64,000 bases of DNA from an uncultured Clostridia bacterium (GCA_948433435.1 CAOJDX010000002.1:25432-89431); one strand, 5' to 3'. Counted from the first letter of the stretch, positions 29,340 through 61,110 are shown. Made by a program: numbers and translations. The notes: generated by a model from the sequence alone, not told the origin.

Positions 29340-29693
29340 CTAATTATTTTTAATTTTTTCTTGATAATACTTAAATAATTCTTTAAATCTATTATAGTGA
29401 ACAATTTCTCTTTGCCTAAGCCATAATAATGGACCTATTACATCAGCATCTTCTGCTAAATCAATTAAGTTTTCATAAACTGCTCTAGCTTTTTGTTCTG
29501 CTGCCATATTCTCAGAAATGTCAGCTAGTGGATCGCCAGTAGTAGCAAAATATGTTGTTGTAAAAGGTACTCCATTGGCATCTGTTGGGAATAAAGCTCT
29601 ACTATGTTCCGCATAATGAGGATCAAGTCCAGCTTCCTTTATTTCTTCTATTGTAGCATCCTTCATTAATTGATAAACCATAGTTGAAATCAT
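29340..29693 (-). pseudogene. cotJC: cotJC 3' fragment (Mn-catalase-family spore coat protein, C-terminal part), split by prophage insertion
   Basis: The translation (QYCKN)ELAHVEMISTMVYQLMKDATIEEIKEAGL... continues exactly where the 60904..61110 fragment stops (...LLTDIGTEEL). There is no RBS or start of its own. Confidence 0.8.
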
Positions 29694-29729
29694 TTCTACA
29701 TGAGCTAATTCATTTTTACAATACTGTTA

Positions 29730-31898
29730 TCAGTCAAAGGGCAATAAAATAATATCAATAGTGAAATTTTCTTTTAAATAGCGGCCTCCATGGTCTTTTT
29801 TATATATAATTTTCTTAATTATTGTAGATAATAATTCGTTTTTTTCTTCGGCTGTCATTTCTGGAGTATAACTACTTAAAACATCTTCTAATATAGGTAT
29901 AGCCTTTTTCTTGCTAGTAAATTCATGAGCTATATTATTTATGTTAGGCAACTCTTGTTTTTGATTTAATAATGCTTCTAACTGATTATTTAAAACATCT
30001 ATTCTTTTTTTAAAAAGTTCTTTAGTATATGCTCCAGCTTCTACTAATTCACAGGCTTTCTCAATTTGTGCGTTTACTTTGTCAATTTCATTGTCTATTA
30101 CCTGTATAACTTCTTTGTTATTATTTATTTCTTTTTGTACTGCTTCTTTGTAATTATCAATATATAATTTATAATCTTCTTTTATTGATCTTAATGTTTG
30201 TAATATTTTACTTTCCACTAATTCTAAATCGCTTGAAACACACTTACATCTAGGGCGACTACACATAAGAGTATCGGCGTGCGCTGGCGTTATACTTTCT
30301 TCTAATGTAGTTACTGCTTTATCAAACTCTGTAGTTTCTATATTCAATAATTTCTTTAGATCTTCCCATTTATTAGCGTATGGCATGGTAAATTTATCGT
30401 CATTACTAGCAAACCAATGATCTACGCAGCATTTAGATACCTTTAAGGATCTAGCTATATCGTTTAGACTATAGTCTCCTTTATGTTCTCGAAGTAATAA
30501 TCTTAACTTAGTCTTATTAACTTCGTAAACTCGTTTTACTGTAGGTTTTGTGTCTTTTCTTATATAGTATGGTCGTCTCGTCATATTATTACCGCAATAC
30601 CCACAAACAACTAAACCAACAAGAGGGTTTTTTAATTCTTTCTCGTCTGGAACAGTTTTAACTCGATTACTTAAAAATTTTTCTTGTATTCTACTACGAT
30701 ATTCTTCATTTAAAATACTATTTTTGTAATGTTTACCTTTTACGAATAAATAATCATTATTATTAGGGTTTTTTCTTACAATTTTACCATTTACTAAAGT
30801 TGTAACAGTTTTTCGTCTGTCCCAAGTTAAATAGCCGTATATAGTTGGACTTTGTAATATATTTCGTATCATATTGGCCGTCCACTCTTTAGCTTTTCTA
30901 GGAGTGATTTTAAGGTAGTTAAAATAGTGTGCTATGTTTGTTGGTCTCATATCGTCAATAATTATTTTAATTGTTTCTCCAGGGTTAAAAATATCGTTAG
31001 GTATATGTATATGATCTATTTTTATATGATAAGCAGCTGATATACTCTCTAATGTATCATTTTCTTGTAATGTATAATCAACACTTTTACTATCTACCGT
31101 AAGTTTTATATCATAACCAATTTTTAAATCTAAATTATGAGTAATTATTACTTTTTTATGAGTACCAAAAGTTTTAGCTATTGTAGATACCGTATCATTT
31201 TCTTTTACTATGTAAGTAGTATTAAGACCGTCCAAAAATAAATCAGCCATAAGTCTAACTACTTTAGCCTCCGACTCATTTTCAACTAACATAAAACCTT
31301 TTTCGTTAGGTATTTTTATTTTATTAGATCCATAAGGAAGCACAGAGCCCACATAATTACCTTCTTTAACGCTTCTTACACGCCCACGAGATAATATTCT
31401 TTTGGTATATTTTAAGTATTTTCTTGACTGATATAAGCCGTCTTCAAAATAGGAAAGATCATCTTCATTGTCAAGATCATAAATTTTCATAGGAGTTACT
31501 ATTTTTGTACCAGTATACTTAAATGTTTGAGCTATGATACCCTGGTCTATAGTGTTACCACGTGCTAGACGTTCTATTTCAATACATATAACGCCTTTTT
31601 TATCGTCGTTTTCTATTATAGATAATACTTCTTGCATTACTGGACGATTTTCGATAGTGTCTCCAGACGCAACCTCTCTATAGATATTATGCTCTGGTAT
31701 AGGTTTACCGAAAATACTTATAATAAAGTCCTGTAAGTCTTTTTCATGACGTTGTAATGTTTTTTCTATAGACTCGTCTTTAAAATAGTCCATATCTTTA
31801 CGTGATTTTCTTAAGTATATTATTAACATATCTAGTATTTCATCTATAGATAGATTACTAGGTATATGTAAAATTCTTAAAAATGTATCTAAATTCAT
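29730..31898 (-). CDS. Large serine recombinase (SpoIVCA/SprA-like integrase)
   Basis: It has an N-terminal resolvase catalytic domain (YLRKSRKD...IERLARG) and long recombinase and zinc-ribbon/coiled-coil domains. Its stop codon lies inside the attL arm. Confidence 0.9.
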   Translation of the reverse strand: MNLDTFLRILHIPSNLSIDEILDMLIIYLRKSRKDMDYFKDESIEKTLQRHEKDLQDFIISIFGKPIPEHNIYREVASGDTIENRPVMQEVLSIIENDDKKGVICIEIERLARGNTIDQGIIAQTFKYTGTKIVTPMKIYDLDNEDDLSYFEDGLYQSRKYLKYTKRILSRGRVRSVKEGNYVGSVLPYGSNKIKIPNEKGFMLVENESEAKVVRLMADLFLDGLNTTYIVKENDTVSTIAKTFGTHKKVIITHNLDLKIGYDIKLTVDSKSVDYTLQENDTLESISAAYHIKIDHIHIPNDIFNPGETIKIIIDDMRPTNIAHYFNYLKITPRKAKEWTANMIRNILQSPTIYGYLTWDRRKTVTTLVNGKIVRKNPNNNDYLFVKGKHYKNSILNEEYRSRIQEKFLSNRVKTVPDEKELKNPLVGLVVCGYCGNNMTRRPYYIRKDTKPTVKRVYEVNKTKLRLLLREHKGDYSLNDIARSLKVSKCCVDHWFASNDDKFTMPYANKWEDLKKLLNIETTEFDKAVTTLEESITPAHADTLMCSRPRCKCVSSDLELVESKILQTLRSIKEDYKLYIDNYKEAVQKEINNNKEVIQVIDNEIDKVNAQIEKACELVEAGAYTKELFKKRIDVLNNQLEALLNQKQELPNINNIAHEFTSKKKAIPILEDVLSSYTPEMTAEEKNELLSTIIKKIIYKKDHGGRYLKENFTIDIILLPFD

Positions 31899-32063
31899 AT
31901 TATAGCACTTTCTTTCTTTTAAATTTTATGCTATAATCGTATAGAAAAACCTATACAATTATAGTTTCTTATATAACCTATTAGTTTCTATTTTTGTTCT
32001 GAGTGTGATAGCTTTTGTGGTTTTTCATTTTGACACTTTATGTTCGCGCATAACGTGTCTTTT

Positions 32064-32543
32064 TTATTTACTTATAAAACATATAAGTTTATTATGATCT
32101 AAGCAATTTAATGTAATTACTTCGTTACTATTTCTTTTTATTTCTCCAACAATAATATTATTATCTATTAAATTGTTATTATTTATTATAAAAGATGTTC
32201 CATTTTCTAAAGTATTGTTTAATTTAATATCAAATGTCTTTAAATAACCGTTTTGACATATTATCGCAATAGTATAAAATTCATTATCAAAATCATATAT
32301 CAAACCGTAATCATAACTTTCGCATAAATTATAATATTTATTATCAATTTTATTACTTATTCTTATGTATTTATTATTTTCATTATCATAAGCCATAAAG
32401 TAGAAATTGTTATTTTTTTCGTCTATTTCAATAGAGACAAATTTACCTTTAAAGCAATTAAAATCATTGTTGTTTTTGCTAACTTTAATTAGTTGCATAT
32501 CAACTTTTTTTATTGTATTTTTTTTCTTAAATAATCCAAACAT
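32064..32543 (-). CDS. Hypothetical prophage accessory (moron) protein
   Basis: It is an Asn-rich ORF in the cargo position between the integrase and the repressor. Confidence 0.4.
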   Translation of the reverse strand: MFGLFKKKNTIKKVDMQLIKVSKNNNDFNCFKGKFVSIEIDEKNNNFYFMAYDNENNKYIRISNKIDNKYYNLCESYDYGLIYDFDNEFYTIAIICQNGYLKTFDIKLNNTLENGTSFIINNNNLIDNNIIVGEIKRNSNEVITLNCLDHNKLICFISK

Positions 32544-32620
32544 ACATTAACCTCTTTCTCTTTGTTAATTGGTAAATATTACCATTTACCTTATAATATC
32601 GCCCTAAGGAGGGGGTATTT

Positions 32621-32719
32621 ATGAAATATAAGTCAAAGTTCGATCTATTATATGAGCTACTTCTTAAAAAACATATAAACGTAGATCTTCTTATTGAACT
32701 TCTAAAGTATTTCAAATAG
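32621..32719 (+). CDS. Small ORF (32 aa) with strong SD
   Basis: It has AAGGAGGGGG 6 nt upstream and TTATAATAT as a -10 element. It encodes MKYKSKFDLLYELLLKKHINVDLLIELLKYFK. Confidence 0.25.
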   Translation: MKYKSKFDLLYELLLKKHINVDLLIELLKYFK

Positions 32720-32730
32720 GAATACTTTTT

Positions 32731-33096
32731 TTATTCCTTTTTATCAATAATAAATTCTTTATTTTTTTCTATAAACTTTAATAATTTATTAAAACTTTCT
32801 TCTGAGAGATCTTCGCCGTCGAAAAAATCATTTTCCATTAAAGCGTCTTTGAGTTTTTCTTTGATATTTTCCGCAGCTTTTCTTTCTTGCCACCCTAATA
32901 GATAGTTTGCGTCAACATCAAGTGCACCACATAAGGAGCATAATGTATCAGCGTCTGGCTTACTTGTTCCTTTTTCCCAGTTTGAAATAGCTGTATTTCC
33001 GAATTTCATTTCGTCATCACTTATTAACTCGGCTAATTGCTCTTGCGTTATTCCTTTTTTTATTCTAGCATTTCTAATATTTTCCCCTAATGACAT
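32731..33096 (-). CDS. XRE-family HTH repressor (cI-like)
   Basis: It has an N-terminal HTH (IRNARIKKGITQEQLAELI) and is divergent from a cro-like gene. Confidence 0.8.
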   Translation of the reverse strand: MSLGENIRNARIKKGITQEQLAELISDDEMKFGNTAISNWEKGTSKPDADTLCSLCGALDVDANYLLGWQERKAAENIKEKLKDALMENDFFDGEDLSEESFNKLLKFIEKNKEFIIDKKE

Positions 33097-33158
33097 TTAA
33101 AACCACCTCTCTTTAATTAGAATTATAACATTTAAAAAATGTCAAGTAAATACAAAAA

Positions 33159-33245
33159 TTCAAGAAACTTGAAATTTTATCATAAAAACATATTGACTTT
33201 ATTCAAGAACTATGGAATAATGAAAATAACTTCAAGATACTTGGA
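33159..33245. promoter_or_regulatory. Lysogeny switch region: three TTCAAG-N3-CTTG(A/G)A operator-like palindromes and the cro promoter
   Basis: O1 is ttcaagaaacttgaa at 33159-33173. O2 is ttcaagaactatgg at 33203-33216 and overlaps the promoter spacer. O3 is ttcaagatacttgga at 33231-33245. The promoter is TTGACT (33194-33199), a 16-nt spacer and AATAAT. Confidence 0.5.
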
Positions 33246-33267
33246 GTCAAAAATAAGGAGGTGTACT

Positions 33268-33498
33268 ATGAAAGTCTATGAAAGATTAAATAAATACATT
33301 AAAGAAAATGGTATTAAACAGTCTTATATTTCTGAAAAGTCCAAGATACCTGAAAATACTTTAAGTATGATTTTAAACGGAAAATTAAGATTAGACGCAG
33401 ATAAACTGCAAGACATTATAACAGCATTAAATATTGATCCTAATATTATTATTTATGCGCCTAATAATTCAACATCTGAAATATCAAACACTAACTAA
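33268..33498 (+). CDS. XRE-family HTH protein (Cro-like)
   Basis: It has an HTH (KENGIKQSYISEKSKIPENTLSMILNGK) and GGAGGTG upstream of ATG 33268. Confidence 0.7.
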   Translation: MKVYERLNKYIKENGIKQSYISEKSKIPENTLSMILNGKLRLDADKLQDIITALNIDPNIIIYAPNNSTSEISNTN

Positions 33499-33522
33499 CA
33501 TAAAATTTAATGAGGTGTTGAA

Positions 33523-33765
33523 ATGGAAAATACAGAAAGCTATCACACAATTAAGGAGCTAACACTAGGAAAAACGCAAGTTAGGGTTTGTATAGAGTCT
33601 ATTCCAACAGAAGATCAAATAAAAAGACGTTTAACTAAAATTTATGATGTCGTTAATGATATAGCTCGTAAAGCAGAAAGACGAGGCGTTGATACTTCTA
33701 AATGGTTTTATACTCCTAAACAAATTCGTCAGTTAAAGGAAAGCTCAGAAAATAGATTTATCTAA
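33523..33765 (+). CDS. Hypothetical phage early protein
   Basis: It is an 80-aa ORF following the cro-like gene. Confidence 0.4.
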   Translation: MENTESYHTIKELTLGKTQVRVCIESIPTEDQIKRRLTKIYDVVNDIARKAERRGVDTSKWFYTPKQIRQLKESSENRFI

Positions 33766-34155
33766 CTTTCCCTAGTAGGACAAGCTCTAAAAAAGAAAAG
33801 GAGAAACTATCATAAGAAAAAAACGTAAACTTAAAACTTGGGTAAGAGTTACCCTAACAATATTATTAACCATTATTATTGGTTTAATACTAGGTCTAAT
33901 AATCAAGAAAGGAGTCGACGACTTTGAGGAATTAGCGAGACAATGCGATCAAGACCGTGGCTATACTTGCTCTTATTATGATATAAGACAATATTCCTTA
34001 GGTAAGTAAAAAATATGTATGGAAGATCTAATAAAAAAAGATTTATAAGTTGGATCAGAACTCATAAATCAAAATGTAAACTTTCTTATAATTTACTCTC
34101 TAATTGTACCATATTTAGGGGGTAAAGTCAAAATATGGACGATTGGAGGTAAAAC

Positions 34156-34830
34156 ATGAAAGATAGTTATATAATGCACTGCGACTATAGTAGTCATTTT
34201 GAATTATTAACAGACGAAGAATTAGGTCGGCTAATACGCGACGTAAACAACTATGTTAAAAATGGTGTTTTACCCCAATACTCCGAGAGAGATCGCGTTT
34301 TAAATATGGCCTTTAGCTTCATGAAAACTAATATTGATATTGAAACCGAAAAATACATCAAGAAATGTGAAAAAAACAAAGAAAATGGGCGACGTGGTGG
34401 AAGACCGAGAAACCCAGAAAAAGCGAACGGTTTTGACGAAAACCCAGAAGAAGCCAAAAAAGCCGATACTGATACTGATACTACAACTGATACTGATACT
34501 ACAACTGATACTGATACTACAACTGATACTGATACTGAAACAACTAATAAAGGTGTGTGTAAAAAAAGCGCGCACGCGAAAGAAATCACTTGTCATTTAG
34601 GAAGTGAATACAAAGAAGAGTCTTGTTTCTACTGTATGAAAAAGAATTTATGTAAGAATAAAGACTCGCCTAGTTTTAAATTTTCCCACCCTCACGAAAC
34701 ATTTAGCGAGTGGAATAAAAAACTAGAACAAAGAAAAGAAGAAGTCATAAAAGAATTAGAGTCTATGGGTAAAAACCCAGATATAGAGCTTATTGATTAT
34801 GACTGGTTAAATGAAGACTTAGACACGTAA
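34156..34830 (+). CDS. Phage replisome-organizer-like protein with (TDTDTT)n repeat and C-terminal Cys cluster
   Basis: It has an N-terminal Lin1244/DnaD-like region, an acidic tandem repeat and a CxxxxxxxxCxxC cluster. Confidence 0.35.
   Translation: MKDSYIMHCDYSSHFELLTDEELGRLIRDVNNYVKNGVLPQYSERDRVLNMAFSFMKTNIDIETEKYIKKCEKNKENGRRGGRPRNPEKANGFDENPEEAKKADTDTDTTTDTDTTTDTDTTTDTDTETTNKGVCKKSAHAKEITCHLGSEYKEESCFYCMKKNLCKNKDSPSFKFSHPHETFSEWNKKLEQRKEEVIKELESMGKNPDIELIDYDWLNEDLDT
34455..34545 (+). repeat. 18-bp tandem repeat (gatactgatactacaact) x ~4 built on 6-bp GATACT subunits
   Basis: The repeat is directly visible in the sequence. It encodes TDTDTT units. Confidence 0.8.
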
Positions 34831-34846
34831 AGGAGGAAATTATATT

Positions 34847-35101
34847 ATGAGAATAACAAGTGTTAAAGTTAAAAAAATAGAAGAAAAAAATTCACGCTTA
34901 GTAGGAGTAGCTACTGCGGTAATTGATAAAGTATTTATCATTGAAGATATTAAGATTATTAAAGGCGACGAGAAATTGTTTCTAGCTATGCCTAGTCAAA
35001 AAATGCCTGACGGATCATACAAAGATATAGCACACCCACTTAACGCAGACTGTAGAAAGTTATTTGAAGACGCTATCTTAACAGAATATGATAATTGCTA
35101 A
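34847..35101 (+). CDS. SpoVG-family protein (phage-encoded)
   Basis: MRITSVKVKKIEE...KVFIIEDIKIIKGDEKLFLAMPSQKMPDGSYKDIAHPLNADCRKLFEDAIL aligns along its length with SpoVG (MEVTDVRL...[36 protein letters not shown]). Confidence 0.7.
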   Translation: MRITSVKVKKIEEKNSRLVGVATAVIDKVFIIEDIKIIKGDEKLFLAMPSQKMPDGSYKDIAHPLNADCRKLFEDAILTEYDNC

Positions 35102-35636
35102 TGAAATATGGAAATCTATCGAGTACGATCCTCGTTACCAGGTATCGAACTACGGAAGATTTAGAAAGAAAAACCCTAAAAATGGTTATAGATATTTAAA
35201 GCCATTTCGTAAAGGTAATCTATTCCAGGTAAAAATAAAAGATAAAGATATGAATTGTGCTAGATTAGTAGCTAATGCCTTTATAAAACAATTAGCTAAA
35301 GAAGATCGTGTTTATCACAAAAACAAAAATGAAAGTGATAACTATTATCGTAATTTAGAAATTGTAACATTAAAAGAACTAGGAAAACGTACAGGTCATA
35401 TATCTAAGTCGCAGCGTGTAGTTGAAGTAAAAGACGACGAAATAATAAGAGACTGGCCTTCTGCTCGCAAAGCTGCTAAAGACTTGTATATTTCATATCA
35501 AACAGTTATGGACTATTGTAATAATAAAGTAAAAAAGCCTATGTTTAATCTTATGTGGGAAGACGATTACTTCGATATGGTTTTCGAGCCATTTGTTTGG
35601 GAGAACAAACGGAGGAAATATGAAGTTAAAAATTAA
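35088..35636 (+). CDS. NUMOD4/HNH-like homing endonuclease family protein
   Basis: It has an N-terminal IWKSIEYDPRYQVSNYGRFR (NUMOD4-like) motif. Confidence 0.5.
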   Translation: MIIANEIWKSIEYDPRYQVSNYGRFRKKNPKNGYRYLKPFRKGNLFQVKIKDKDMNCARLVANAFIKQLAKEDRVYHKNKNESDNYYRNLEIVTLKELGKRTGHISKSQRVVEVKDDEIIRDWPSARKAAKDLYISYQTVMDYCNNKVKKPMFNLMWEDDYFDMVFEPFVWENKRRKYEVKN

Positions 35637-35982
35637 AAAATACATCAGACAGTTTATAGATTATACATTAACAGAAGAATTTAAGTCAATAGTTATCATA
35701 TTTTTAGTAGCTGTTACTATCTTAGCTGTATGTTGGGGCGCAATAATGACAGCTCTTACACAGGACCTTACTAATGTAGCTATAGAGAGAGGCGAAAAAA
35801 TCACAGAGTTAGAGCAACGCGTCGACTATTTTAGTGGCGAGGCTGCTAGATACAAAATGATTAGTGAAGAATATTACGAGTTATTTACTACTTGTCAAGA
35901 TACTGAAAGTTGGTACGAAAAATTTTACTACGACAATGTAGATCCATATACAGGAGAAATTGAGGGCGAATATTATGAGTAG
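35593..35982 (+). CDS. Hypothetical membrane protein
   Basis: The ORF has one transmembrane segment. Confidence 0.35.
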   Translation: MFGRTNGGNMKLKIKKYIRQFIDYTLTEEFKSIVIIFLVAVTILAVCWGAIMTALTQDLTNVAIERGEKITELEQRVDYFSGEAARYKMISEEYYELFTTCQDTESWYEKFYYDNVDPYTGEIEGEYYE

Positions 35983-36319
35983 TAATATTATATGTCTGTT
36001 ACTCGGTATAATATTCGGATCAATAATCACTTACATAGCTTATCATGATGTATTAAAAAGTAAAGACGATTTAATAGACGATTATAGAAAAGGTATTAAG
36101 ATCCACAATAACCGTGAACTTAAACTAATATTTATAAATCAGTCTACTAAAGATTATGTAAAAAAACAACAAAATATTATTAAAAGTAACTATGGTAAAA
36201 ATGAAAAGCCTACTACTGACGATACTATCGCAGCTGGTTACTATAGTGCTCTTAAAGATGTCGAAAAAACTATCACTCAATTTGAAAAGAACTCGGAGGA
36301 ACTTGTAACAAAGGAGTGA
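35960..36319 (+). CDS. Hypothetical membrane protein
   Basis: The ORF has an N-terminal transmembrane segment. Confidence 0.35.
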   Translation: MRANIMSSNIICLLLGIIFGSIITYIAYHDVLKSKDDLIDDYRKGIKIHNNRELKLIFINQSTKDYVKKQQNIIKSNYGKNEKPTTDDTIAAGYYSALKDVEKTITQFEKNSEELVTKE

Positions 36320-36323
36320 TCTT

Positions 36324-36965
36324 ATGTCTAAATCTAAGCCTAGATATTTTAGAGTAAAATTCGGACGTAAAACAGTTAGGCCGTTTAAAAAGCCAGATAT
36401 TGATAATATGATCGTAAATTGTAAAAAACGTATGGCCGAAGCTGAAACGAAAGAAGATCAAGAACAATATTACTTATGGTATCGAAACTATATGATTTTA
36501 CATCTAGGTAGAAACTTAGCCTTTCGTATAGAGGATCTATTACAATTAAAAACAGACAATTTTAAAAATGGTGGTATATATACGAGAGAGTTTAAGACTG
36601 GAAAAGAGCAGACATTCGAATTACACCCTTCTCTAGCTAAAGACGTTGAAGAATACGTAAATAAATTCGAGTTAGTCGAAGGAGAGTATTTATTCAAGAG
36701 TCGTAAAGGTGTTAATAAACCTATTACACGTCAAAGAGCATGGCAGATTATAAAACAATTAGCTAATGAAGTTAAAGTCAATTATGTTGTAGGCTGCCAC
36801 TCTTTACGTAAATACTTTGCTCGTACTTATTACGAACAGACAGGAGATCTTATCGGCCTATCAGAGATGTTAAACCACTCTAGCCCTAGAGTAACGCTTA
36901 TATACATCTGCTGGGAGACTGACGATAAGGAAGAAAAAAGAAAAGGCTTCTATTTAGGAGGTTAA
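36324..36965 (+). CDS. Tyrosine recombinase, catalytic-domain-only (phage integrase family)
   Basis: It has the catalytic residues R (GRNLAFRIEDL), K (FKTGKEQ), HxLR (GCHSLRKYFA) and Y (NHSSPRVTLIYI). It has no N-terminal core-binding domain. Confidence 0.7.
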   Translation: MSKSKPRYFRVKFGRKTVRPFKKPDIDNMIVNCKKRMAEAETKEDQEQYYLWYRNYMILHLGRNLAFRIEDLLQLKTDNFKNGGIYTREFKTGKEQTFELHPSLAKDVEEYVNKFELVEGEYLFKSRKGVNKPITRQRAWQIIKQLANEVKVNYVVGCHSLRKYFARTYYEQTGDLIGLSEMLNHSSPRVTLIYICWETDDKEEKRKGFYLGG

Positions 36966-36967
36966 TC

Positions 36968-37534
36968 ATGAATAAACAAGAGCAGCTTAGCATTATAGAT
37001 AATTCTACAACTTATGAAGTAGACAAGACACAAAATAAGGATCATGTAGCTACTCCTCGTTGGGTAGTAGAAAATATATACGATTTAATTGATATTAAAA
37101 GCTTTAAAATGATATGGTTTCCTTTTAATAACTACGATAGTCATTTTAAATTAAAAGCTGACGAATTAAACCTACAGTATAAAGCTACACATATCTTTGA
37201 TAACTTAGGTAATGATTTCTTTACTACATTACCACCTAAAGACTGTGATCTGTTAATTAGTAACCCACCTTTCTCACAACAAAACGAAATTATAAAAAGA
37301 AGTTTTGAGTTAGTGGAGCTAGGTTTAATTAAGTCTTTCTGTTTATTACTTCCTTTATCTACTTTAGAGACTCCTAAAAGAGCCGAGATATACGAAAAGT
37401 ATATTGATAAATTAAACATACTTATCTTTAAGAAGAGAATTAAGTTTTTAGGTAAAGCTACAAGCTTTAATACTGCTTGCTGCTGGGTATGTTATAACAT
37501 TGACTCACTTAAACAAAAAATAATATGGATCTAA
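36968..37534 (+). CDS. N6-adenine DNA methyltransferase (small, NPPF motif)
   Basis: It carries the DLLISNPPF motif IV. Confidence 0.55.
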   Translation: MNKQEQLSIIDNSTTYEVDKTQNKDHVATPRWVVENIYDLIDIKSFKMIWFPFNNYDSHFKLKADELNLQYKATHIFDNLGNDFFTTLPPKDCDLLISNPPFSQQNEIIKRSFELVELGLIKSFCLLLPLSTLETPKRAEIYEKYIDKLNILIFKKRIKFLGKATSFNTACCWVCYNIDSLKQKIIWI

Positions 37535-37866: not shown

Positions 37867-37870
37867 TATT

Positions 37871-38675: not shown

Positions 38676-38686
38676 GAGGTATCATT

Positions 38687-48185: not shown

Positions 48186-48186
48186 T

Positions 48187-49370: not shown

Positions 49371-49384
49371 AGGAGGGAAAACTA

Positions 49385-49951: not shown

Positions 49952-50025
49952 AAATAAAATTTATTCTCCTTTTTGTTTTCTATTTGAGCGATAACAAAAG
50001 GGAGAATAATAGAAAGAAGGAAATT

Positions 50026-53695: not shown

Positions 53696-54747
53696 TGAAA
53701 GCTATATTTTTAAATGTGTATGATCGCGATTTAAACTTTTTAGGAGTTATTGATAGTTATAGCTCTTTACGTTGGCGTCGTAAATACTTTGAAGCTGGCG
53801 AGTTTGAGTTAAATATAAACCCTACAGCTAATAACTATAGACTCTTAAAGGCTGATAACATTATTGTTAGAGGTGATTTAACAGAAAATGACGAGTTTGG
53901 TATTATTGACTCTTGGAAGTTTAAAGAAGATAAGGAAAAAGTTACTATTACTGTATATGGTAGGTTTGGTTTATTCTTATTAAATAGAAGGATCATAAAA
54001 AATCGTATCAATTATAGAGGAACGTATATCGGAGGTTTTAGGAAATTACTTACTTCCATGCGTCCATTTAAGAAACTAGATATTACAGATAGTGATATTG
54101 TTAGTGGTAAAGTTGATTTTCAATGCACTTATAAAAATGTATATACATATCATGAGAAGTTATCTAAAGCGTCTAATATTGGTGGTAAGATCGTTTTAGA
54201 CTTAGAGAATAAGCGTTATAAATATGTTAATTATGTTGGAAAAGATAGAACAGAAGATCAAAAAGTAAATACTAGGTATGAATTTAGCGAAGATAAATCA
54301 AACTTAGATACTACAGAACACACTTATAGCAGAAAAAACATGATTACTGATGTATTAGTCGGTGGAGCTGGCGAAGATACAAACAGAATTATGAGGACTG
54401 TTACTAATGTTACAGCAGATACTCACGACTTCGATATTAGAGAGGCTTTTGTAGACGCTAAAAACGAAAGTAACAAAGATCTATCAGCAGCTGAATATAA
54501 CGCTATCTTGGACGATTTAGGAAAAGAAAAGTTAACAGATCCTACAGAAACTTTCGAAGCTACAGTACACTCTACCGATTATAGAAAATATTGGGACTTG
54601 GGCGATATTGTAAATATCAAAAAAGAAAGTTGGAGTATGACTAAGAAACAACGAATTACCGAAGTTGAAGAAGTTATCGAAAAAGGTAAACATGATGTAA
54701 TACCTACTTATGGTAACCCTATAGCAGAAACTTTTAATAATGATTAA
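53695..54747 (+). CDS. Tail-associated lysin / baseplate hub (Tal-like)
   Basis: It is assigned by position and size. Confidence 0.55.
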   Translation: MKAIFLNVYDRDLNFLGVIDSYSSLRWRRKYFEAGEFELNINPTANNYRLLKADNIIVRGDLTENDEFGIIDSWKFKEDKEKVTITVYGRFGLFLLNRRIIKNRINYRGTYIGGFRKLLTSMRPFKKLDITDSDIVSGKVDFQCTYKNVYTYHEKLSKASNIGGKIVLDLENKRYKYVNYVGKDRTEDQKVNTRYEFSEDKSNLDTTEHTYSRKNMITDVLVGGAGEDTNRIMRTVTNVTADTHDFDIREAFVDAKNESNKDLSAAEYNAILDDLGKEKLTDPTETFEATVHSTDYRKYWDLGDIVNIKKESWSMTKKQRITEVEEVIEKGKHDVIPTYGNPIAETFNND

Positions 54748-54764
54748 GGAGGGAAATAAGAGTT

Positions 54765-55682
54765 ATGGAAAAGTTTAGTTTTTTTAACGATATAGACGAC
54801 GATAGAGTCTATTTCGCGGAAGATTTCGCTAGACATCTGGCGAAGTATTTTACTAATGGTATCTTTAATAATGAGTTACAAGTTATAGCTAATAATGATA
54901 TGACAATAACTATTAAAGAAGGCGACGCCAATATTGAAGGTTACCGTTATACTAATACTGGAGATCTAACTAAAACAATAGATACAGCAGACGGAGCATT
55001 AAAACGTATTGATAATGTTGTTATAAGATTAGATTTAACGAACAGGTTAATATCAGCTCAAATAATCAAAGGAACATTTAGCGACAAGCCGTCTGCTCCT
55101 TCTTTAGTTAGATCCTCAACAACGTATGATATTAAACTAGCTGAGATATATGTTGATAATGGAGTTACTTCTATTACTCAGTCAGCTATTAAAGACACAA
55201 GATTTGATAAAAATGTTTGTGGTAATGTTGTGTCTACTGTAGAGACAATAGATACTACAGATGTATATAATCAGTTATATACAAAGTTTGAGGAAATCAT
55301 ACAGCAAGAAACAATAGAGTTTACAGACTGGTTTAATAGAATTAAAAATCAATTAGACACAGACGCCGCAGGTCATTTGGCCGCAGAAATAAATAAAATA
55401 GTCGATAGTGGCCTTAAAAGTTATACAAAGACACTGACTGTAGATAACTGGTCGCTAAACAACGAGACTAATTTATATGAATATGATATAATAGATAGTG
55501 ATGTTACATCTAGCACGTTAGTAAATGTTAATTTAGATTTAGTAAATCAAGTTAAACTTAATGACGGTATGGTTAACTCCTACAATGGAGGTTTTAAGAT
55601 AATTACTTCTGAAAAGCCTCTCGAAAATATAGATACCACTATCACATATCAAGTATCTAATTTAAGTTTGGAGGGGATCTAA
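54765..55682 (+). CDS. Tail fibre/baseplate protein
   Basis: It is assigned by position. Confidence 0.4.
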   Translation: MEKFSFFNDIDDDRVYFAEDFARHLAKYFTNGIFNNELQVIANNDMTITIKEGDANIEGYRYTNTGDLTKTIDTADGALKRIDNVVIRLDLTNRLISAQIIKGTFSDKPSAPSLVRSSTTYDIKLAEIYVDNGVTSITQSAIKDTRFDKNVCGNVVSTVETIDTTDVYNQLYTKFEEIIQQETIEFTDWFNRIKNQLDTDAAGHLAAEINKIVDSGLKSYTKTLTVDNWSLNNETNLYEYDIIDSDVTSSTLVNVNLDLVNQVKLNDGMVNSYNGGFKIITSEKPLENIDTTITYQVSNLSLEGI

Positions 55683-55683
55683 T

Positions 55684-56805
55684 ATGTTGGGTGTAATCAA
55701 TGTTCGAGATAAAAGATCGAACAATTTAAGTAAGGTTTACGGAGTAAGACGTTCCCTAGCTTCTTCTTCGTCAGCCTGGGAAAGAATTGAGGACGCTGTA
55801 GGTTTAGTAGCTAACGCACAAGTGGGAACAACTGCTGTAAGAAATGATTTCGATAGTATTTACCCATGGAGCGATATAATTACTTGTAATTATAATAATT
55901 CTACTAAAAAAGTAACCGCTTACTATGGCGACGCTAATTTCTCATTTACTGGAGGTACTAACATACAAGTTATGACTATTATTCCAGAGTTTTATTACAG
56001 ACGTTATATTTCCGACGGTTACGAATATATCTTTATTTCTAAAGACAATTTAAGTGGCTTTATTAAGAGTAAAGAATTTATGATCGGACGTTATACAATG
56101 TCTGGTACTTCTTCTGGAGTATATAGTCGTAGCGGACAAGCTCCATTTACTAACCACACTATCGCAGAGTTTAGGCAATATGCTAAAAACTTGGGCCCTG
56201 GCTGGAGTCAATTAGACTGGCATTATTTCTTAATACAGCTACTTTATTTAGTAGAATATGCAGACTATAATATTCAGTCTAAAATTGGACCAGGACATAC
56301 TAACGCTAATAATACAGCACCTAAAAATAGCGGTGGCTGTAATGCTTTAGGTATGAAATCTGGTTGTATGGTTAAAAATGATACGAACTCTGTTGTTTAT
56401 AGAGGTATCGAAGATTTATACGGTAATGTATGGCAATTTTTCGACGGTCTTAATATAAATAACTATCAAGCTTATATCAATTATAACCCTAGTACCTACG
56501 CTTCTGATGTGTTCGACGGAGATTATCATAAGTTAGGCTATGTTAATAGTTCTACAAGTAGTAGTTATATAACCTCTTTAGGTTATGATCCTAAAAACCC
56601 TTTAGTAGGTCTTCCTACTGATGTAAACGGTAGTAGTAATACTTATATGTGTGATTATTATTGGACTCAAAGCGGAGAACGAATAGCTCTTGTCGGCGGT
56701 GCTTGGAATAACGCATTTCATGCGGGGTTGTGGTGTTGGATCTTTTACGAGGCGTCTTCTGCTTATGGCGTGGGCGTCGGAGCTCGACTTCTTAAAACCA
56801 GTTAG
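55684..56805 (+). CDS. DGR target: receptor-binding tail fibre with C-terminal variable region
   Basis: Its last ~35 codons are the VR (ALVGGAWNNAFHAGLWCWIFYEASSAYGVGVGARLL). This region is homologous to the downstream TR, as expected for a C-type-lectin-fold DGR target. Confidence 0.7.
   Translation: MLGVINVRDKRSNNLSKVYGVRRSLASSSSAWERIEDAVGLVANAQVGTTAVRNDFDSIYPWSDIITCNYNNSTKKVTAYYGDANFSFTGGTNIQVMTIIPEFYYRRYISDGYEYIFISKDNLSGFIKSKEFMIGRYTMSGTSSGVYSRSGQAPFTNHTIAEFRQYAKNLGPGWSQLDWHYFLIQLLYLVEYADYNIQSKIGPGHTNANNTAPKNSGGCNALGMKSGCMVKNDTNSVVYRGIEDLYGNVWQFFDGLNINNYQAYINYNPSTYASDVFDGDYHKLGYVNSSTSSSYITSLGYDPKNPLVGLPTDVNGSSNTYMCDYYWTQSGERIALVGGAWNNAFHAGLWCWIFYEASSAYGVGVGARLLKTS
56687..56795 (+). repeat. 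DGR variable region (VR)
   Basis: It is the 3' end of the tail-fibre ORF. From ttgtgg to cgacttctta it is identical to the TR except where the TR has A. Confidence 0.7.
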
Positions 56806-56933
56806 CGGGGGTTTGGGGGCGGCCAGCCTCCCATAAATAAAAAATTAAATTACCGACTGAAAGTCGGCGACGCTCCATTTTAAAATTTGGGGAAATGGTG
56901 TGTGCGCTTCGGTCGTTCTTGTCCTTTTGAGAG

Positions 56934-57363
56934 CTCTTGTCGGCGGTAGGTGGAACAATGCTCTTAATTGTGGCTTGTGGTATTGGAATTACAACAACGC
57001 GTCTGCTGATTACAGTATCAACGTCGGAGCTCGACCACTTATATTAAGATTAGGGATTTGATGTGTATGCTTCGGTTTGTGATTACTGCTCTTGTCGGCG
57101 GTAATTGGTACGAGCACACTCGCGCTGGCTTGTGGTGTGTTACGCTTAACAACCTAGCGTCTAACGTGAACTCTACGATCGGAGCTCGACCACTTGTATT
57201 AAAAATAGGGATCTGGTGTGTATGTTTCGTTGTTTATGACCGTCTACTCTTGTCGGCGGTTGTTATGTCGACCACCTTATGTGTGGCTTGTGGTATTGGA
57301 ATTGTAATCAAGCGTCTTCTATCGCATGGACTAACGACGGAGCTCGACCACTTGTATTAAAAA
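56934..57363 (+). repeat. Three tandem VR/TR-like cassettes (R2 56934-57046, R3 57089-57201, R4 57247-57360), period ~157 bp
   Basis: Each cassette starts with ctcttgtcggcggt and ends with cggagctcgaccactt(a/g)tattaa. Each is an in-frame alternative ALVGG...GLWxW...GARPL module. Confidence 0.75.
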
Positions 57364-57404
57364 TATGGGATCTGGTGTGTGTGCTTTGATGTTGACGCTT
57401 GCTG

Positions 57405-57512
57405 CTCTTGTCGGCGGTAATTGGACTAACAATACTAGATGTGGCTTGTGGTATTGGAACTTTAACGAGGCGTCTTCTGCTTATAACGTGAACGTCGGAG
57501 CTCGACTACTTA
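57405..57512 (+). repeat. DGR template repeat (TR)
   Basis: It is the last cassette, about 125 bp upstream of the RT gene. All nine 3'-region mismatches to the VR are TR adenines. Confidence 0.7.
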
Positions 57513-57637
57513 TCATTAAATTCCTTACACATCATTTTCCTTAGCGCTTGCTAAAAATTAGTCGTTCTGGGTGGGTTTAGTAGGTTTATTCTCGAAAAAC
57601 TCGCAGGCAAATATAAAAATTATAAGGACCAGGAAAT

Positions 57638-58702
57638 ATGAAAAGAACAGGTAACATTTATCAAAAAATCATAGAATTAAGCAATATTGAAGCAGCTATT
57701 TATAAAGCTAGCAAAGGTAAAGGAAATCGTAAGAGTGTTGAAAAAATACTCGACTCTCCTACATATTACGCTTTACAGATACAAAAAGCATTACAAAATA
57801 AAACGTACAGGCCTAGTCCATACGTTGAAATGAAAATACACGACGGAGCTAATAAGAAGGAACGTATTATTTATAAACCACACTTCTACCCAGATCAGAT
57901 AGTACACTGGGCGTTAATGCTTCAATTAGAGCCTTTACTTATGAAAGGTATGTATGAGTTTTGCTGCGCTAGTGTTAAAGACCGCGGTATTATGCGTGGT
58001 ATGAGACATATTAAAAAGATCTTAGTACAAGATCGTAAGTATACTAAATATTGTTTAAAGCTTGATATTAAGAAGTTTTACCCTAGTATTGATAAGCAGA
58101 TACTGAAAAATAAATTTCGTAGGATCTTAAAAGACAAAGATACTCTTAATCTTATAGACCTTATTATTGATAGTGGTATCGAAGGTATACCTATCGGAAA
58201 TTTCACGAGTCAATGGTTTGCGAATTTTTATTTACAGGATCTCGATCATTTTATAAAAGAACACTTAAAAGTAAAATATTACGTGCGTTATATGGACGAT
58301 ATGGTATTATTTTCTAACAACAAAAAAGAATTACGAAAAATCAAAATAGAAATCGACAATTTTCTAAGTAAAGAAAAGCTAACGATAAAAGAAAATTGGC
58401 AGCTTTTCAAAACTGAGTCTAGGCCTCTTGATTTCTTAGGTTATCGCTTCTATCGTGGGTATACTACTCTTAGAAGAAGTAATTTCTTAAGAATTAAGAG
58501 GCGTGCGAAGAAAATGAGTAAGAAAGATCACATAACTTTCCACGACGCCGCAGCTATGATTAGTTATAGCGGCTGGCTAAAACATTGTAACTCTTATAAT
58601 TATCAACAGAAGTACATAAAACCGTATGTAAATTATAAATTGTGTAAGGAGGTTATAAGAAATGAAAGTAAAAAAGACAGAAAGCACAATAAGACCACTT
58701 AA
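57638..58702 (+). CDS. DGR reverse transcriptase
   Basis: It has the RT motifs including YVRYMDDMVLF (YxDD) and the DGR-specific IPIGNFTSQWFANFYL (I/LGxxxSQ), which closely resembles the bRT of Bordetella phage BPP-1. Confidence 0.9.
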   Translation: MKRTGNIYQKIIELSNIEAAIYKASKGKGNRKSVEKILDSPTYYALQIQKALQNKTYRPSPYVEMKIHDGANKKERIIYKPHFYPDQIVHWALMLQLEPLLMKGMYEFCCASVKDRGIMRGMRHIKKILVQDRKYTKYCLKLDIKKFYPSIDKQILKNKFRRILKDKDTLNLIDLIIDSGIEGIPIGNFTSQWFANFYLQDLDHFIKEHLKVKYYVRYMDDMVLFSNNKKELRKIKIEIDNFLSKEKLTIKENWQLFKTESRPLDFLGYRFYRGYTTLRRSNFLRIKRRAKKMSKKDHITFHDAAAMISYSGWLKHCNSYNYQQKYIKPYVNYKLCKEVIRNESKKDRKHNKTT

Positions 58703-59186
58703 CTTTAAAATTGGCGATCACAAAGGCAACCTTATAGAGGTTGTTTTTTTTGACGACATAGAAGAAGTTATAAGGACATCAGAAGACGGAACAGAACAAA
58801 CGGTATATCTTTATTATGAGTACACTATCAAAATAGTTAATAGAAGTGATTTAGAGTCTTATATAAACGAAAACTATGAGACATGGCTACAAATGGCTAA
58901 AGATAACTTTATCGCTTCTAAATCAGCAGAAATAAGAGCAATAAGAGACAAATTACTCGCTGATAGCGACAAACACGTCCTTATTGATAGATTAGGTATT
59001 GAAATACCAGAAACAATTAACGCCGCCACTATGTTAACTGTTATCAAAGATCTATTTAGTTCTCTTGGTAATATCTTAAATGGAGACTGGTCTACTTATA
59101 GACAGGCTTTAAGAGATATTACTAAACAGCCTAACTTCCCATTTGACGTAGATTTTCCTACAATACCTGGAGAAAATAAAGAATAA
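58662..59186 (+). CDS. Hypothetical phage protein
   Basis: It is an ORF downstream of the RT. It is not Avd-like. Confidence 0.4.
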   Translation: MKVKKTESTIRPLNFKIGDHKGNLIEVVFFDDIEEVIRTSEDGTEQTVYLYYEYTIKIVNRSDLESYINENYETWLQMAKDNFIASKSAEIRAIRDKLLADSDKHVLIDRLGIEIPETINAATMLTVIKDLFSSLGNILNGDWSTYRQALRDITKQPNFPFDVDFPTIPGENKE

Positions 59187-59488
59187 TGGAAAGCTCGACT
59201 ATGATTTCAATAGGCTTAATTTTTACTATCATAGGTGGAATAATTGGTTATGCTACCTTTTATATGAATAGTAAGAAAAACACAAAACAAGAGACTAAAG
59301 AGGAAGTGGCTATGTCAACTAAGCTAGAGACTAAACTTGATATGATAAGTAGAAATATTGACGAAATAAGGCTCGATAATAAAGACTTTAGTAAGTCAAT
59401 ACAACAGTTGGCCGAACGTGTATCAGCTGTAGAACAGTCGGCAAAATCAGCACATCACAGAATAGATCAATTAGAAGAAAGAAAGTGA
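59186..59488 (+). CDS. Lysis-associated membrane protein (N-terminal TM plus coiled coil, XhlA-like)
   Basis: Its single transmembrane segment and position in the lysis cassette support this call. Confidence 0.4.
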   Translation: MESSTMISIGLIFTIIGGIIGYATFYMNSKKNTKQETKEEVAMSTKLETKLDMISRNIDEIRLDNKDFSKSIQQLAERVSAVEQSAKSAHHRIDQLEERK

Positions 59489-59742
59489 GGTGTCAGATAA
59501 TGACTTTAGAAGCTATTATAATGTTGGTTACTATGGTAGTAACCTTTTTTTGTGGTTTAATCGCGAAAAAAGTAAGTTGGTTTAATACTAACTTAATACC
59601 TATACAAAATATCATGATCGGCGTTATTGTGGCCGTTATAGAGTGGATCATTACTAAAGATTTTAGTACAGCTATAGCCGTTAGTGGTTTAATAGCTGGT
59701 GGTATCTATGATATAGGACATAATTTACAAAAAATGAAATAA
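59485..59742 (+). CDS. Holin
   Basis: It is 85 aa with 2-3 transmembrane segments and lies immediately upstream of the endolysin. Confidence 0.7.
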   Translation: MRCQIMTLEAIIMLVTMVVTFFCGLIAKKVSWFNTNLIPIQNIMIGVIVAVIEWIITKDFSTAIAVSGLIAGGIYDIGHNLQKMK

Positions 59743-59754
59743 GGAGGTCTCGCT

Positions 59755-60810
59755 ATGGAGAAAGTATTTGGTATTGATATTAGTACATATCAAAGAGGAA
59801 TAAATCTAGCAGCTGCTAAAAATGAAGGTGTTAGGTTTGCTATCTTAAGAGCTGGTTTTACTGGCTATGGTAACGGAGTCAGCAAGTCAAAAGATAATCA
59901 ATTCGAAAATCATTATAGAAATGCTAAAGCTAATGGTATTGGTGTTGGTGCTTATTGGTATAGTTGTGCTACTACTTATGAGAACGGCAGAGCTGAGGCT
60001 GAATATATGTATAATAATTGTTTGAAAGGTAAACAATTCGAGTACCCTATAGCTATAGATGTAGAAGATAGTCATTATCAAGCTAAAGCTGGTAAGGCTG
60101 CTGTAACAGCTGCTATTAAAGGTTTCTGCGAGTTTTTAGAAGCTAAAGGCTACTATGTTTCTATTTACGCTAATAGTAACTGGTTTAATAATTATATTGA
60201 TACATCACAATTAGCTAAATATGATAAATGGGTAGCTAACTGGAGCTCTAACAGACCAAGTAACCCAGCAGGTGGTCTATGGCAATTCGGCGGAGAAACT
60301 AACCGTATTAGAACAAATAAAGTAGCTGGTATGACTGTAGATCAAAACTACGCTTACTATGATTACCCAGCCATTATGAGACAAAAAGGCTTAAATGGTT
60401 TTAGTGCTGACGGAAGCGTACAACCACAAGAGCCTACACAACCAAGTAACCCAGCTCCACAACCTAGTACATCAAATAGCGACTCTGTTTATACAGTAGT
60501 AGCTGGAGATACTTTAAGTGGTATTGCTTCTAGGTATGGTACTACATATCAAAAGTTGGCCGCATACAATAATATTAGTAACCCTAATCTTATTCATGTA
60601 GGACAACAAATTAAAATACCTGGTGCTGGTAAGGACACTAATGTCGTTACCAACAATAGTAGAACATATACTGTTAAGAGTGGAGATACTTTAAGTGGTA
60701 TCGCTTCTAAGTATGGTACTACATGGCAAAAGATCTATAACGATAATAAATCTGTTATAGGATCTAACCCTAACTTAATTAAACCAGGGCAGGTATTAAC
60801 AATTAACTAA
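59755..60810 (+). CDS. Endolysin: GH25 muramidase with two C-terminal LysM domains
   Basis: It has an N-terminal GH25 fold (FGIDISTYQ...) and two LysM repeats ([14 protein letters not shown]..., [14 protein letters not shown]...). Confidence 0.9.
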
Positions 60811-60812
60811 AA

Positions 60813-60858
60813 AAGGAGGTCTCCGACTAAAATGTCGGTTACCTCTCTTTTTTTTTGC
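60813..60858 (+). terminator. Rho-independent terminator after the lysin
   Basis: The hairpin gaggtctccgac-taaaat-gtcggttacctc is followed by T9. Confidence 0.6.
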
Positions 60859-60903
60859 TCTTTTTTCTCCTTATTTTATCTATGGCTTTTATTTATGATA
60901 ATC

Positions 60904-61110
60904 TTATTGTGTCAATTCTTCTGTGCCAATATCCGTAAGTAGGGCTCTTCCCTGATTATCAGGCATAGTATAGCGTTGATTTAGATAACGAAGTGCCGCA
61001 GCAAGTTCTCCATTAGCACCACCATACTGTGTCACTAATATTTTAGCCATTTTTAAGTTTTTCTTTTTAATATTAACTGGATATTGTAATCTCTTTTCAT
61101 ATGCCCACAT
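60904..61110 (-). pseudogene. cotJC: cotJC 5' fragment (N-terminal 65 aa, premature stop in prophage end)
   Basis: MWAYEKRLQYPVNIKK...GGANGELAAALRYLNQRYTMPDNQGRALLTDIGTEEL matches the CotJC N-terminus and then runs into TQ* inside the phage arm. Confidence 0.8.

Follow-up and report, generated by a model that had tools for sequence, protein, structure and literature searches.

The window (the whole 64,000-nucleotide stretch of DNA analysed here) very probably carries a 31,207-bp functional temperate phage of siphovirus type, inserted by its own large serine integrase at the GA of codon Glu65 of cotJC. The phage is inserted precisely, and the matching empty site is found in an isogenic context. 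Across many different cotJC alleles the position used by this integrase family is always the same, and relatives exist in attP (excised or virion) form. The host, an uncultured gut bacterium of the Bacilli, has Candidatus Onthousia as its nearest named relative. The features of the element and its flanks are collected in Table 1.

Table 1. Features of the interrupted cotJC locus and its prophage, in order of position (counted from the first letter of the window)
Feature	Position	Strand	Basis or remark
cotJC 3' part: Glu65 to stop	29340..29711	-	ORF reading
Junction of phage int-side arm and cotJC 3' half: CTGATAACAGTATTGTAAAAAT-GA-ATTAGCTCATGTAGAAATGATT	29688..29733	-	sequence comparison
Prophage DNA enclosed by the GA copies, 31,205 bp	29712..60916	.	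31,207 bp expected for the circular form
Large serine integrase, 722 aa	29730..31898	-	Resolvase, LysM-like insert, Recombinase, zinc ribbon
159-aa gene between repressor and integrase	32064..32543	-	conservation comparison
Genetic switch, divergent sigma-70-type promoters	32731..33498	.	domain matches and promoter pattern
CI-like repressor	32731..33096	-	part of genetic switch
Cro-like HTH	33139..33498	+	part of genetic switch
80-aa early protein, candidate RDF	33523..33765	+	co-conservation
SpoVG homologue, phage-encoded	34847..35101	+	Pfam SpoVG E 7.6e-27
Late regulator (sigma/ArpU-like) and HNH endonuclease, upstream of terminase genes	41286..42307	+	
Packaging/head module	42504..49370	+	putative small terminase, portal, protease, major head protein, four connector proteins
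Large terminase	42954..44600	+	within packaging/head module
Tail module	49385..56805	+	major tail, distal/minor tail, tail or receptor-binding proteins
Tape measure	50665..52827	+	within tail module
DGR-like cassette	56686..58702	+	five 119-nt repeats and reverse transcriptase
Reverse transcriptase of DGR-like cassette	57638..58702	+	
Two small holin-like genes	59186..59742	+	
Endolysin (GH25 and LysM)	59755..60810	+	PHROG 291 E 2e-66; Pfam annotation of homologue
Hairpin with A and T runs on either side, between endolysin gene and junction	60809..60854	.	RNA fold
Junction of cotJC 5' half and phage right arm: ACTTACGGATATTGGCACAGAA-GA-ATTGACACAATAAGATTATCAT	60895..60940	-	sequence comparison
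cotJC 5' part: codons 1-64 and GA of Glu65	60917..61110	-	ORF reading and flank comparison
cotJB, weak CotJA-like N-terminus	61110..61508	-	Pfam CotJB E 1.3e-20, CotJA E 2e-4
sigmaK-type promoter of cotJB-cotJC operon, AC-N17-CATATATTA	61526..61553	-	pattern scan

Interruption of cotJC

The 31,207-bp element interrupts cotJC at Glu65, the first codon of E65-x-x-H68, the di-manganese ligand (ExxH metal-binding) motif of CotJC. Both halves lie on the minus strand where the original prediction had placed them. The N-terminal ORF (60904..61110) continues into phage sequence, from which it gains L-T-Q and its stop at 60904, so that the product ends ...LLTDIGTEEL+TQ*. The frame of the C-terminal ORF (29340..29693) is open upstream to ...NELAHVEMIST at 29711, and the first in-frame start of the 3' part is Met71.

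Deleting 31,207 bp (one repeat unit) in silico brings the halves into one frame of 187 aa; the length first given was 189 aa. The prediction of an in-frame join by excision between two GAATT copies (minus strand, 60918-60914 and 29711-29707) stood as to the join. It did not stand as to GAATT being the whole crossover: the core is GA alone. End-to-end alignment of the joined ORF with CotJC, run as a preset test, gave 95% identity to intact 187-aa proteins. Pfam Mn_catalase covers the joined protein as a single match (profile positions 1-197, E 1e-55), the alignment with 6j42 contains the EExxH motif, and 1jku was also matched. Against the NCBIfam model of bona fide manganese catalase the score is 110 bits (cut-off 350 bits), as expected because this is a short CotJC-type protein.

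The stop codon of cotJB overlaps the start codon of cotJC. The sigmaK-type promoter of the operon is conserved in three relatives; in L001 and L004 it keeps AC, CATATATTA and a spacing of 16-17 nt, while the spacer sequence diverges. Homology, operon structure and promoter motif together suggest that cotJB and cotJC form a spore-coat operon, with cotJC as its Mn-catalase-family member, and that cotJC is expressed in the mother cell. Sporulation hints in the flanks are weak (a YlxY/PdaB-like deacetylase with a score below cut-off). GC content is 32.5% in the prophage, and 26.7% and 29.9% in the flanks.

The metagenome contig L027 is identical to both flanks (100.000% over 3087 and 2809 bp) and has an intact cotJC, and is therefore the empty site. 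It contains the predicted attB verbatim and, as had been expected of related genomes, an uninterrupted cotJC at the same locus. The exact joined CotJC sequence is the intact protein on 37 contigs, and among the contigs read that encode an identical CotJB, 18 of 22 have cotJC intact. Since the in-silico join equals this natural intact allele, excision is predicted to restore cotJC exactly.

Integrase and attachment sites

The serine recombinase gene expected at the left junction, on the cotJC strand, was found there. Its Pfam domains are Resolvase (residues 26-143), Recombinase (314-407) and Zn_ribbon_recom (425-445), and a YLRKS motif is visible in an alignment, in keeping with a large serine recombinase whose N-terminal resolvase catalytic domain has the nucleophilic Ser. 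The nearest solved relative is SprA of SPbeta (E 7e-30). Only 18 nt separate the end of int from the crossover, and the int stop codon lies within the attP arm.

At least 17 distinct cotJC alleles (host half-sites) are joined to phage DNA at the dinucleotide GA. These are the sole bases common to all junctions compared; the remaining three bases of GAATT are a chance match in the present host allele. attP is a 46-bp imperfect palindrome at the int stop codon, with 14-16 of 22 dyad positions matching. Variants with central TC integrate in the opposite orientation.

The source is apparently a metagenome-derived assembly, and a chimera of phage and host contigs could in principle produce a split gene. 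This reading is effectively refuted, its probability being negligible: both junctions are seen again in independent assemblies, and the dinucleotide at which they fall never changes. Those of the present host recur in L025 and L040-L043, and many more are found in other hosts. In L040-L043 the right junction joins the same 68-aa truncated CotJC to the endolysin gene.

The phage and its relatives

Lysogeny, replication, packaging, head, tail and lysis modules were all found as uninterrupted ORFs by PHROG and Pfam matches. This full module set agrees with the prediction of a complete, apparently phage-competent prophage. The five 119-nt repeats of the DGR-like cassette span 56686-57522, and the first of them lies within the C-terminus of a tail protein. 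The hairpin beyond the endolysin gene was missed by a simple terminator scan and is supported by folding (RNA fold -22 kcal/mol, z -5.1). It is likely a bidirectional terminator, which would block cotJ transcripts from entering the phage. When 25 kb of the element was compared by megablast with 50,697 phage records, there was no match, and a protein search with Int against isolated phages gave nothing above 40% identity.

Related integrases occupy the same place. The C-terminal half of CotJC, from residue 64/65, directly follows a homologous int (71-94% identity) in six of seven full-length genome loci. Of 14 metagenome places, 13 show the same arrangement, and the remaining one, L013, is in attP form. 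The attP-form contigs, which belong to relatives at 72-94% Int identity and are other phages than the one studied, are L008 (29,942 bp), L013 (30,334 bp) and L045 from IMG/VR (29,861 bp), and each carries int, then attP, then the endolysin gene. The studied phage itself is mobile, because DNA 98.8-100% identical to it sits in cotJC genes that are 67-80% identical. A second phage in the same species has a homologous 508-aa integrase and uses the same cotJC site in the opposite orientation; it also encodes a SpoVG homologue.

Skin and several other intervening elements are defective, and the present element might likewise be a domesticated remnant that no longer forms phage. We consider this very improbable. 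All modules are uninterrupted, the length of 31.2 kb agrees with the attP-form genomes of relatives (29.9-30.3 kb), and near-identical copies sit in divergent hosts.

Timing of excision

A functional temperate phage at this site would have the following cycle. Integration would shorten CotJC to 68 aa and silence the 3' part of the gene, and the CI-like repressor would maintain lysogeny. On induction, the early operon would supply a recombination directionality factor (RDF), for which the 80-aa ORF is the candidate. Int and this factor would then recombine both junctions, releasing the phage and restoring cotJC. The phage probably uses this site because protein function constrains the ExxH-coding sequence in many hosts, and probably also because the gene is silent in growing cells, which can do without it.

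A search for the RDF among all small ORFs with PHROGs and Pfam returned SpoVG only. The candidate (33523..33765) was chosen by co-conservation. It is conserved at 63-92% in every family member, and a 75-aa early ORF in the second cotJC phage matches it at 33% identity (E 1e-14). It has no family match in PHROGs or Pfam, and a PDB search gave only coiled-coil noise. Its gene belongs to the early lytic operon under CI control, where it lies 24 nt downstream of the Cro-like gene. The 159-aa gene adjoining int was also considered as RDF. It occurs in contigs whose Int is identical or 94% identical, and was dropped because no homologue of it was found in more distant family members (71-84% Int).

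Consensus scans for sigmaE/sigmaK promoters found none upstream of int, where none is conserved across the family, and none upstream of the candidate RDF in either cotJC phage. The same scan detects the cotJ promoter, but scans that rely on consensus are weak as negatives in an uncultured lineage. Other matches are intragenic or antisense, and none is conserved across the family. One antisense sigmaE-like match (36014..35987) is also present in L012, but no sensible ORF follows it. Looking for a sporulation promoter or an RDF that controls the recombinase, as the original prediction had proposed, yielded an RDF candidate and no such promoter at int or at the candidate.

That prediction also likened the element to skin and SPbeta in being excised in the mother cell, a claim left unsupported by the scans upstream of int and the candidate RDF. 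In such a switch a sporulation sigma factor would drive the RDF or the integrase, CotJC would then be made for the spore coat, and the forespore would retain the prophage. We regard this as possible but doubtful. The layout is that of SPbeta in spsM, with an active phage and a large SprA-related serine integrase; the host gene has a conserved sigmaK-type promoter; and excision would be exactly restorative. Two different phages use the same site, and tested elements in sigK, spsM, spoVFB, spoVR, gerE and yabG excise in a sporulation- or growth-phase-dependent manner. Besides the promoter scans, the place of the candidate RDF in a CI-controlled operon and the hairpin terminator between cotJ transcription and the phage argue against a switch. 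In Bacillus subtilis cotJC is not known to be required for completing sporulation, so selection for timed excision would be weaker than for sigK. Neither split half differs from the intact allele, so the insertion is too recent to judge purifying selection on the two halves.

A wider version, which we put forward tentatively and think unlikely, makes the ExxH codons of cotJC a developmental switch for a widespread gut phage family in uncultured small-genome Bacilli. Mother-cell excision would rebuild the coat catalase while the prophage is carried in the spore. This would be an SPbeta-like programme, independently evolved and horizontally spread across many host species, with integrases that carry a LysM-like insert and an orientation set by the central GA/TC flip.

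On balance we lean towards plain insertional inactivation. Here cotJC would be a conserved, low-cost landing site, excision would occur solely on prophage induction, and the lysogen would sporulate without this CotJC or with a paralogue in its place. No coding stretch of cotJC is more constrained than the target, and the same phage is inserted in many divergent alleles. The scans and the lytic-operon position of the RDF candidate fit this account as well. Non-lysogenic contigs predominate in the species (37 with cotJC intact, 4 and 5 with it split), which is what an ordinary temperate phage would be expected to show. Weighing on the other side are the weakness of consensus scans as negatives, the candidate status of the RDF, and the developmental excision of all comparable elements tested to date in mother-cell genes.

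Comparison with known systems

Only a few mobile elements are listed as splitting sporulation genes, and the cotJC phage is a cleanly defined further case, with attB, attP and the crossover dinucleotide located, an empty site that is isogenic, and numerous independent insertions. By its gene content it appears to be a live phage, not a remnant, in a gut lineage without cultured members. Two related integrases converge on one protein-constrained motif, and the natural set of at least 17 attB variants can serve the study of target recognition by serine integrases. The locus also offers a concrete test of whether insertions in coat genes are under developmental control or simply tolerated.

The closest parallel in layout is SPbeta in spsM of B. 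subtilis (SprA integrase, SprB RDF). SPbeta is an active temperate phage, as the cotJC element very probably is. Each has its integrase gene at one end and interrupts the coding region of a late mother-cell gene for the envelope or coat; excision restores that gene exactly in SPbeta and is predicted to do so in cotJC. SPbeta differs in size (~134 kb) and in its unrelated gene content. Its sprB has a demonstrated sigmaE/K-dependent promoter, and mother-cell excision was shown experimentally (PMC4191935, PMC5499854), whereas the cotJC phage has a candidate RDF only, scans without a sporulation promoter, and an Int with a LysM-like insert.

Skin in sigK (B. subtilis, C. difficile) and PhiS63 in sigK (C. 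perfringens) are likewise phage-derived serine-recombinase elements that split a sporulation gene. Their target is a regulator essential for late sporulation, whereas cotJC encodes a coat enzyme. Skin is defective, and PhiS63 is a fully functional phage (PMC3442830) whose integrase matches residues 25-233 only of Int, at 39% identity. The prophage-like yin in yabG of Clostridium botulinum also has a serine recombinase and interrupts a sigmaK-dependent coat-related gene, and both its integrated and circular forms were detected (PMC10747680). It is unique to one strain, with a proposed SigK promoter before a putative RDF; the cotJC phages form a widespread family, in which the scans gave no such promoter. 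As a separate observation, C. difficile phi027 adjoins a CotJC-like gene.

The original prediction suggested that cotJC might be an undescribed host gene, but it is already on record. Kohm et al. (2021), citing Abe et al. (2013), name cotJC as a frequent integration target, and Galperin et al. (2022) report a skin-like element that interrupts cotJC of Laceyella sacchari. The supplements of Mageeney et al. (2020) list neither catalase nor cotJC. The likeness to the interruptions noted by Abe et al. and Galperin et al. is that a mobile element interrupts the same host gene. As cited, those are listings in Bacillales, and the comparison is with the listings alone; here an intact phage lies in uncultured gut Bacilli, and its att sites and family-wide target are defined.

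Rejoining of the split gene

The cotJC gene is split by the phage at codon Glu65, and its parts lie in one frame on the same strand (see table). Deleting one 31,207-bp unit in silico yields a 187-aa ORF, shorter than the 189 aa of the original prediction, which was right that the halves rejoin in frame. The joined protein gives one uninterrupted Pfam Mn_catalase match (profile positions 1–197, E 1e-55) and can be aligned with two Mn catalases of solved structure, 1jku and 6j42, in the second case through the EExxH motif. It also aligns end to end with intact 187-aa CotJC proteins at 95% identity.

In 18 of the 22 contigs examined with an identical CotJB, cotJB on one side and the LytTR and GH94 genes on the other flank an intact 187-aa cotJC. 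Two stretches of the window, 3087 bp (64000..60914) and 2809 bp (29711..26903), match the empty-site contig L027 with 100.000% identity. These alignments share a 5-bp overlap, GAATT, and the reconstructed 46-bp attB is present verbatim in L027. The exact joined protein is recorded on 37 contigs and the N-terminal half truncated at TEELTQ on four; truncated cotJC adjoining the phage is also found in the independent contigs L025 (junction checked in DNA) and L040–L043. An uninterrupted locus in relatives, on which the original prediction depended, thus exists, and the empty site together with the intact and truncated records excludes an assembly artefact.

Features of the window at the split gene and within the phage
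Feature	Position	Strand	Remark
Pentapeptide-repeat protein	21026-21607		host flank
cotJC C-terminal part	~31 kb to the left, stop at 29340	-	resumes ...N-ELAHVEMISTMVYQL, same frame
GAATT copies	29711-29707; 60918-60914
Serine integrase (Int), 722 aa	29730..31898	-	integration
14-nt inverted repeat	31931-31964	-	CTATAATTGTATAG-N6-CTATACGATTATAG
32-aa ORF	32621..32719	+	region 32569-32719
CI-like repressor, divergent Cro-like gene			genetic switch; sigma-70-type promoters
Candidate RDF, 80 aa	33523..33765
Early genes			SpoVG homologue (34847-35101), HNH nucleases, methyltransferase, short tyrosine-recombinase-like protein (213 aa, 36324-36965)
Late control			late regulator
Packaging and head			terminase, portal, protease, major head protein, connectors
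Tail			major tail protein, tape measure, tail proteins
Diversification (DGR-like)	55684-58702		reverse-transcriptase cassette
Tail protein with lectin-like end	55684..56805
119-nt repeat, five copies	56686-57522
Reverse transcriptase (RT)	57638..58702
Lysis			holins, GH25-LysM endolysin
Hairpin	60809-60854		between junction and endolysin gene
cotJC N-terminal ORF	60904..61110	-	reads MWAYEK...LLTDIGTEEL, then TQ-stop
cotJB	61110..61508	-	precedes cotJC N-terminal ORF

Host gene context

The motif AC-N17-CATATATTA lies 18 nt upstream of cotJB. Contigs L001 and L004 from relatives keep both elements and a spacing of 16–17 nt with a diverged spacer sequence, which fits a sigmaK-type mother-cell promoter. 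The predicted hairpin (-22 kcal/mol, z -5.1) would keep cotJ transcripts out of the phage. The host ValRS shares 76% identity with its counterpart in Candidatus Onthousia (Bacilli incertae sedis).

CotJB residues 17–37 have a weak CotJA-like match (E 2e-4, below the cut-off), and no separate cotJA gene lies upstream of cotJB, so the product may be a fused CotJA-CotJB. In L004 (6825-9552), from a related species, cotJB and cotJC are flipped as a pair with respect to the surrounding genes, compared with positions 28587-62510 of the window. Gene order in L004 is GH94(+), LytTR(+), cotJB(+), cotJC(+), Na_Ca_ex(-), XFP(-); in the window, unlike L004, the pair is on the strand of Na_Ca_ex and XFP. 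The pentapeptide-repeat protein weakly resembles HalA, the Hailong anti-phage effector, with a match (E 4e-7) that falls far short of the cut-off.

Integrase and crossover site

Int has Resolvase, Recombinase and zinc ribbon domains (Pfam), and SprA (YokA) from SPbeta is its closest relative among solved structures (E 7e-30). Gut MAGs labelled as uncultured Bacilli contain homologues with 71–94% identity. The catalytic and recombinase domains of Int are separated by an insert resembling LysM (Pfam LysM, E 1e-7, residues 229–259), present in every one of about 120 family members among the matches listed. Such a peptidoglycan-binding fold is odd in a DNA recombinase.

The C-terminal half of CotJC, from residue 64/65, directly follows the integrase stop codon in six of seven full-length loci of these homologues. 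Fourteen further metagenome places carry an identical or 94%-identical Int. Thirteen adjoin Mn_catalase fragments, whose neighbourhoods are quite different; the other (L013) is in attP form. This form (int, then attP, then the endolysin gene) is seen in three contigs of about 30 kb: L008 (29,942 bp), L013 (30,334 bp) and IMG/VR L045 (29,861 bp). The attP is an imperfect 46-bp palindrome with layout 8+14+2+14+8 and dyad matches at 14–16 of 22 positions.

In an alignment of all junctions, which represent at least 17 distinct half-sites, the phage arm ...CTGATAAC-N14 does not change as far as GA, and host bases vary from the first position after it (ATTAGCT, GCTTGGT, ACTTGCC and others). Judged from this alignment, the crossover dinucleotide is GA, which opens the Glu65 codon. 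Of the 5-bp GAATT core proposed earlier, only GA stands; the remainder is coincidence.

The left 5.2 kb of the phage is 98.8–100% identical across contigs L021–L026, and the adjoining cotJC halves are 67–80% identical, except in L025, which is from the same host. Different cotJC genes have thus recently received the same phage, an argument for its being active. Beside one family integrase (L012, 12192-12556), the alignment of the cotJC 3' half runs through two frames and shifts between them near residue 152–157, reflecting either split-gene decay or an assembly error.

The site is also used by a second phage. Contigs L032 and L034, from the same species, have a cotJC N-terminal half ending TEELVH-stop, after which comes a different prophage with a 508-aa serine integrase directed towards the junction. 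This prophage (L032 10399-20399, and L034) sits in the opposite orientation and has a PemK-like gene, an ImmA-like peptidase, a repressor, a DnaB helicase and SpoVG. The two integrases are 35–43% identical in three blocks; relative to the shorter form, Int has two insertions, one LysM-like (residues ~228–320) and one of about 90 aa (~445–538). The second phage's site is centred on TC, 14 nt in from a GATAAC arm, and TC is also central in the attP of L045. Since TC is the same GA on the other strand, the opposite orientation is explained.

Phage gene content

By its gene content, from integration to lysis, the element is a temperate siphovirus-type phage with all parts present, in line with the original prediction of a phage-competent element. 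Its GC content is 32.5%, versus 26.7% and 29.9% in the flanks. Isolated phages gave no megablast match and no integrase of at least 40% identity, so none is close.

In the DGR-like cassette, the first 119-nt copy is the lectin-like C-terminal end of a tail protein. Copy 5, directly before the RT, is the best template fit (15 mismatches at A, 8 elsewhere). Several extra diverged copies are unusual for such a cassette.

The early regions of the two phages that target cotJC each contain a gene for a SpoVG homologue (L032 18564-18821 in the second). In Bacillus, SpoVG regulates sporulation and septation, and the phage may therefore influence host development. Besides the serine integrase, the 213-aa ORF (PHROG 216 integrase, E 1e-40) is 78–97% conserved across the family. 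An inverted repeat lies directly upstream of int. The 32-aa ORF has a strong RBS, is convergent with the repressor gene and is preceded by a sigma-70-like promoter overlapping the palindrome GGTAAATATTACC.

Excision and sporulation

Looking for a sigmaE/K promoter controlling the recombinase, or for an RDF gene, had been suggested with the original prediction. Strict sigmaE/sigmaK consensus scans, which are weak negative evidence, gave no match upstream of int and none conserved across the family. SpoVG apart, the 80-aa ORF alone among the small early proteins is conserved throughout the family, and the second phage encodes a homologue of it (33% identity, E 1e-14), making it a candidate RDF. 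Within the early operon controlled by the repressor, it follows the Cro-like gene after 24 nt, and consensus scans, again weak negative evidence, show no sigmaE/sigmaK motif upstream of it in either phage. This placement points to induction-coupled excision. Excision tied to sporulation, for which we found no positive sign and no promoter of that kind at int or the candidate RDF, seems less likely than not; we lean modestly towards plain insertional inactivation of cotJC. Neither split half differs from the intact allele, and the insertion is too recent for purifying selection on them to be judged.

Comparison with known systems

The element in cotJC has the same arrangement as SPbeta in spsM and as PhiS63 or skin in sigK. 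Mother-cell excision defines the regulated class, of which the cotJC element is at most a putative member. The gene is already a described target, although the original prediction did not list it among the known hosts: Kohm et al. (2021), citing Abe et al. (2013), count cotJC, gerE, yaaH and yhbH among the genes often targeted for integration, and Galperin et al. (2022) place a skin-like element in Laceyella sacchari cotJC. Our literature search found no paper characterising a mobile element in cotJC. New here are the definition of an active phage family in gut Bacilli that are uncultured, the placing of the crossover, by the junctions, exactly at GA within the ExxH ligand motif of cotJC, and one site common to two related integrases in opposite orientations.
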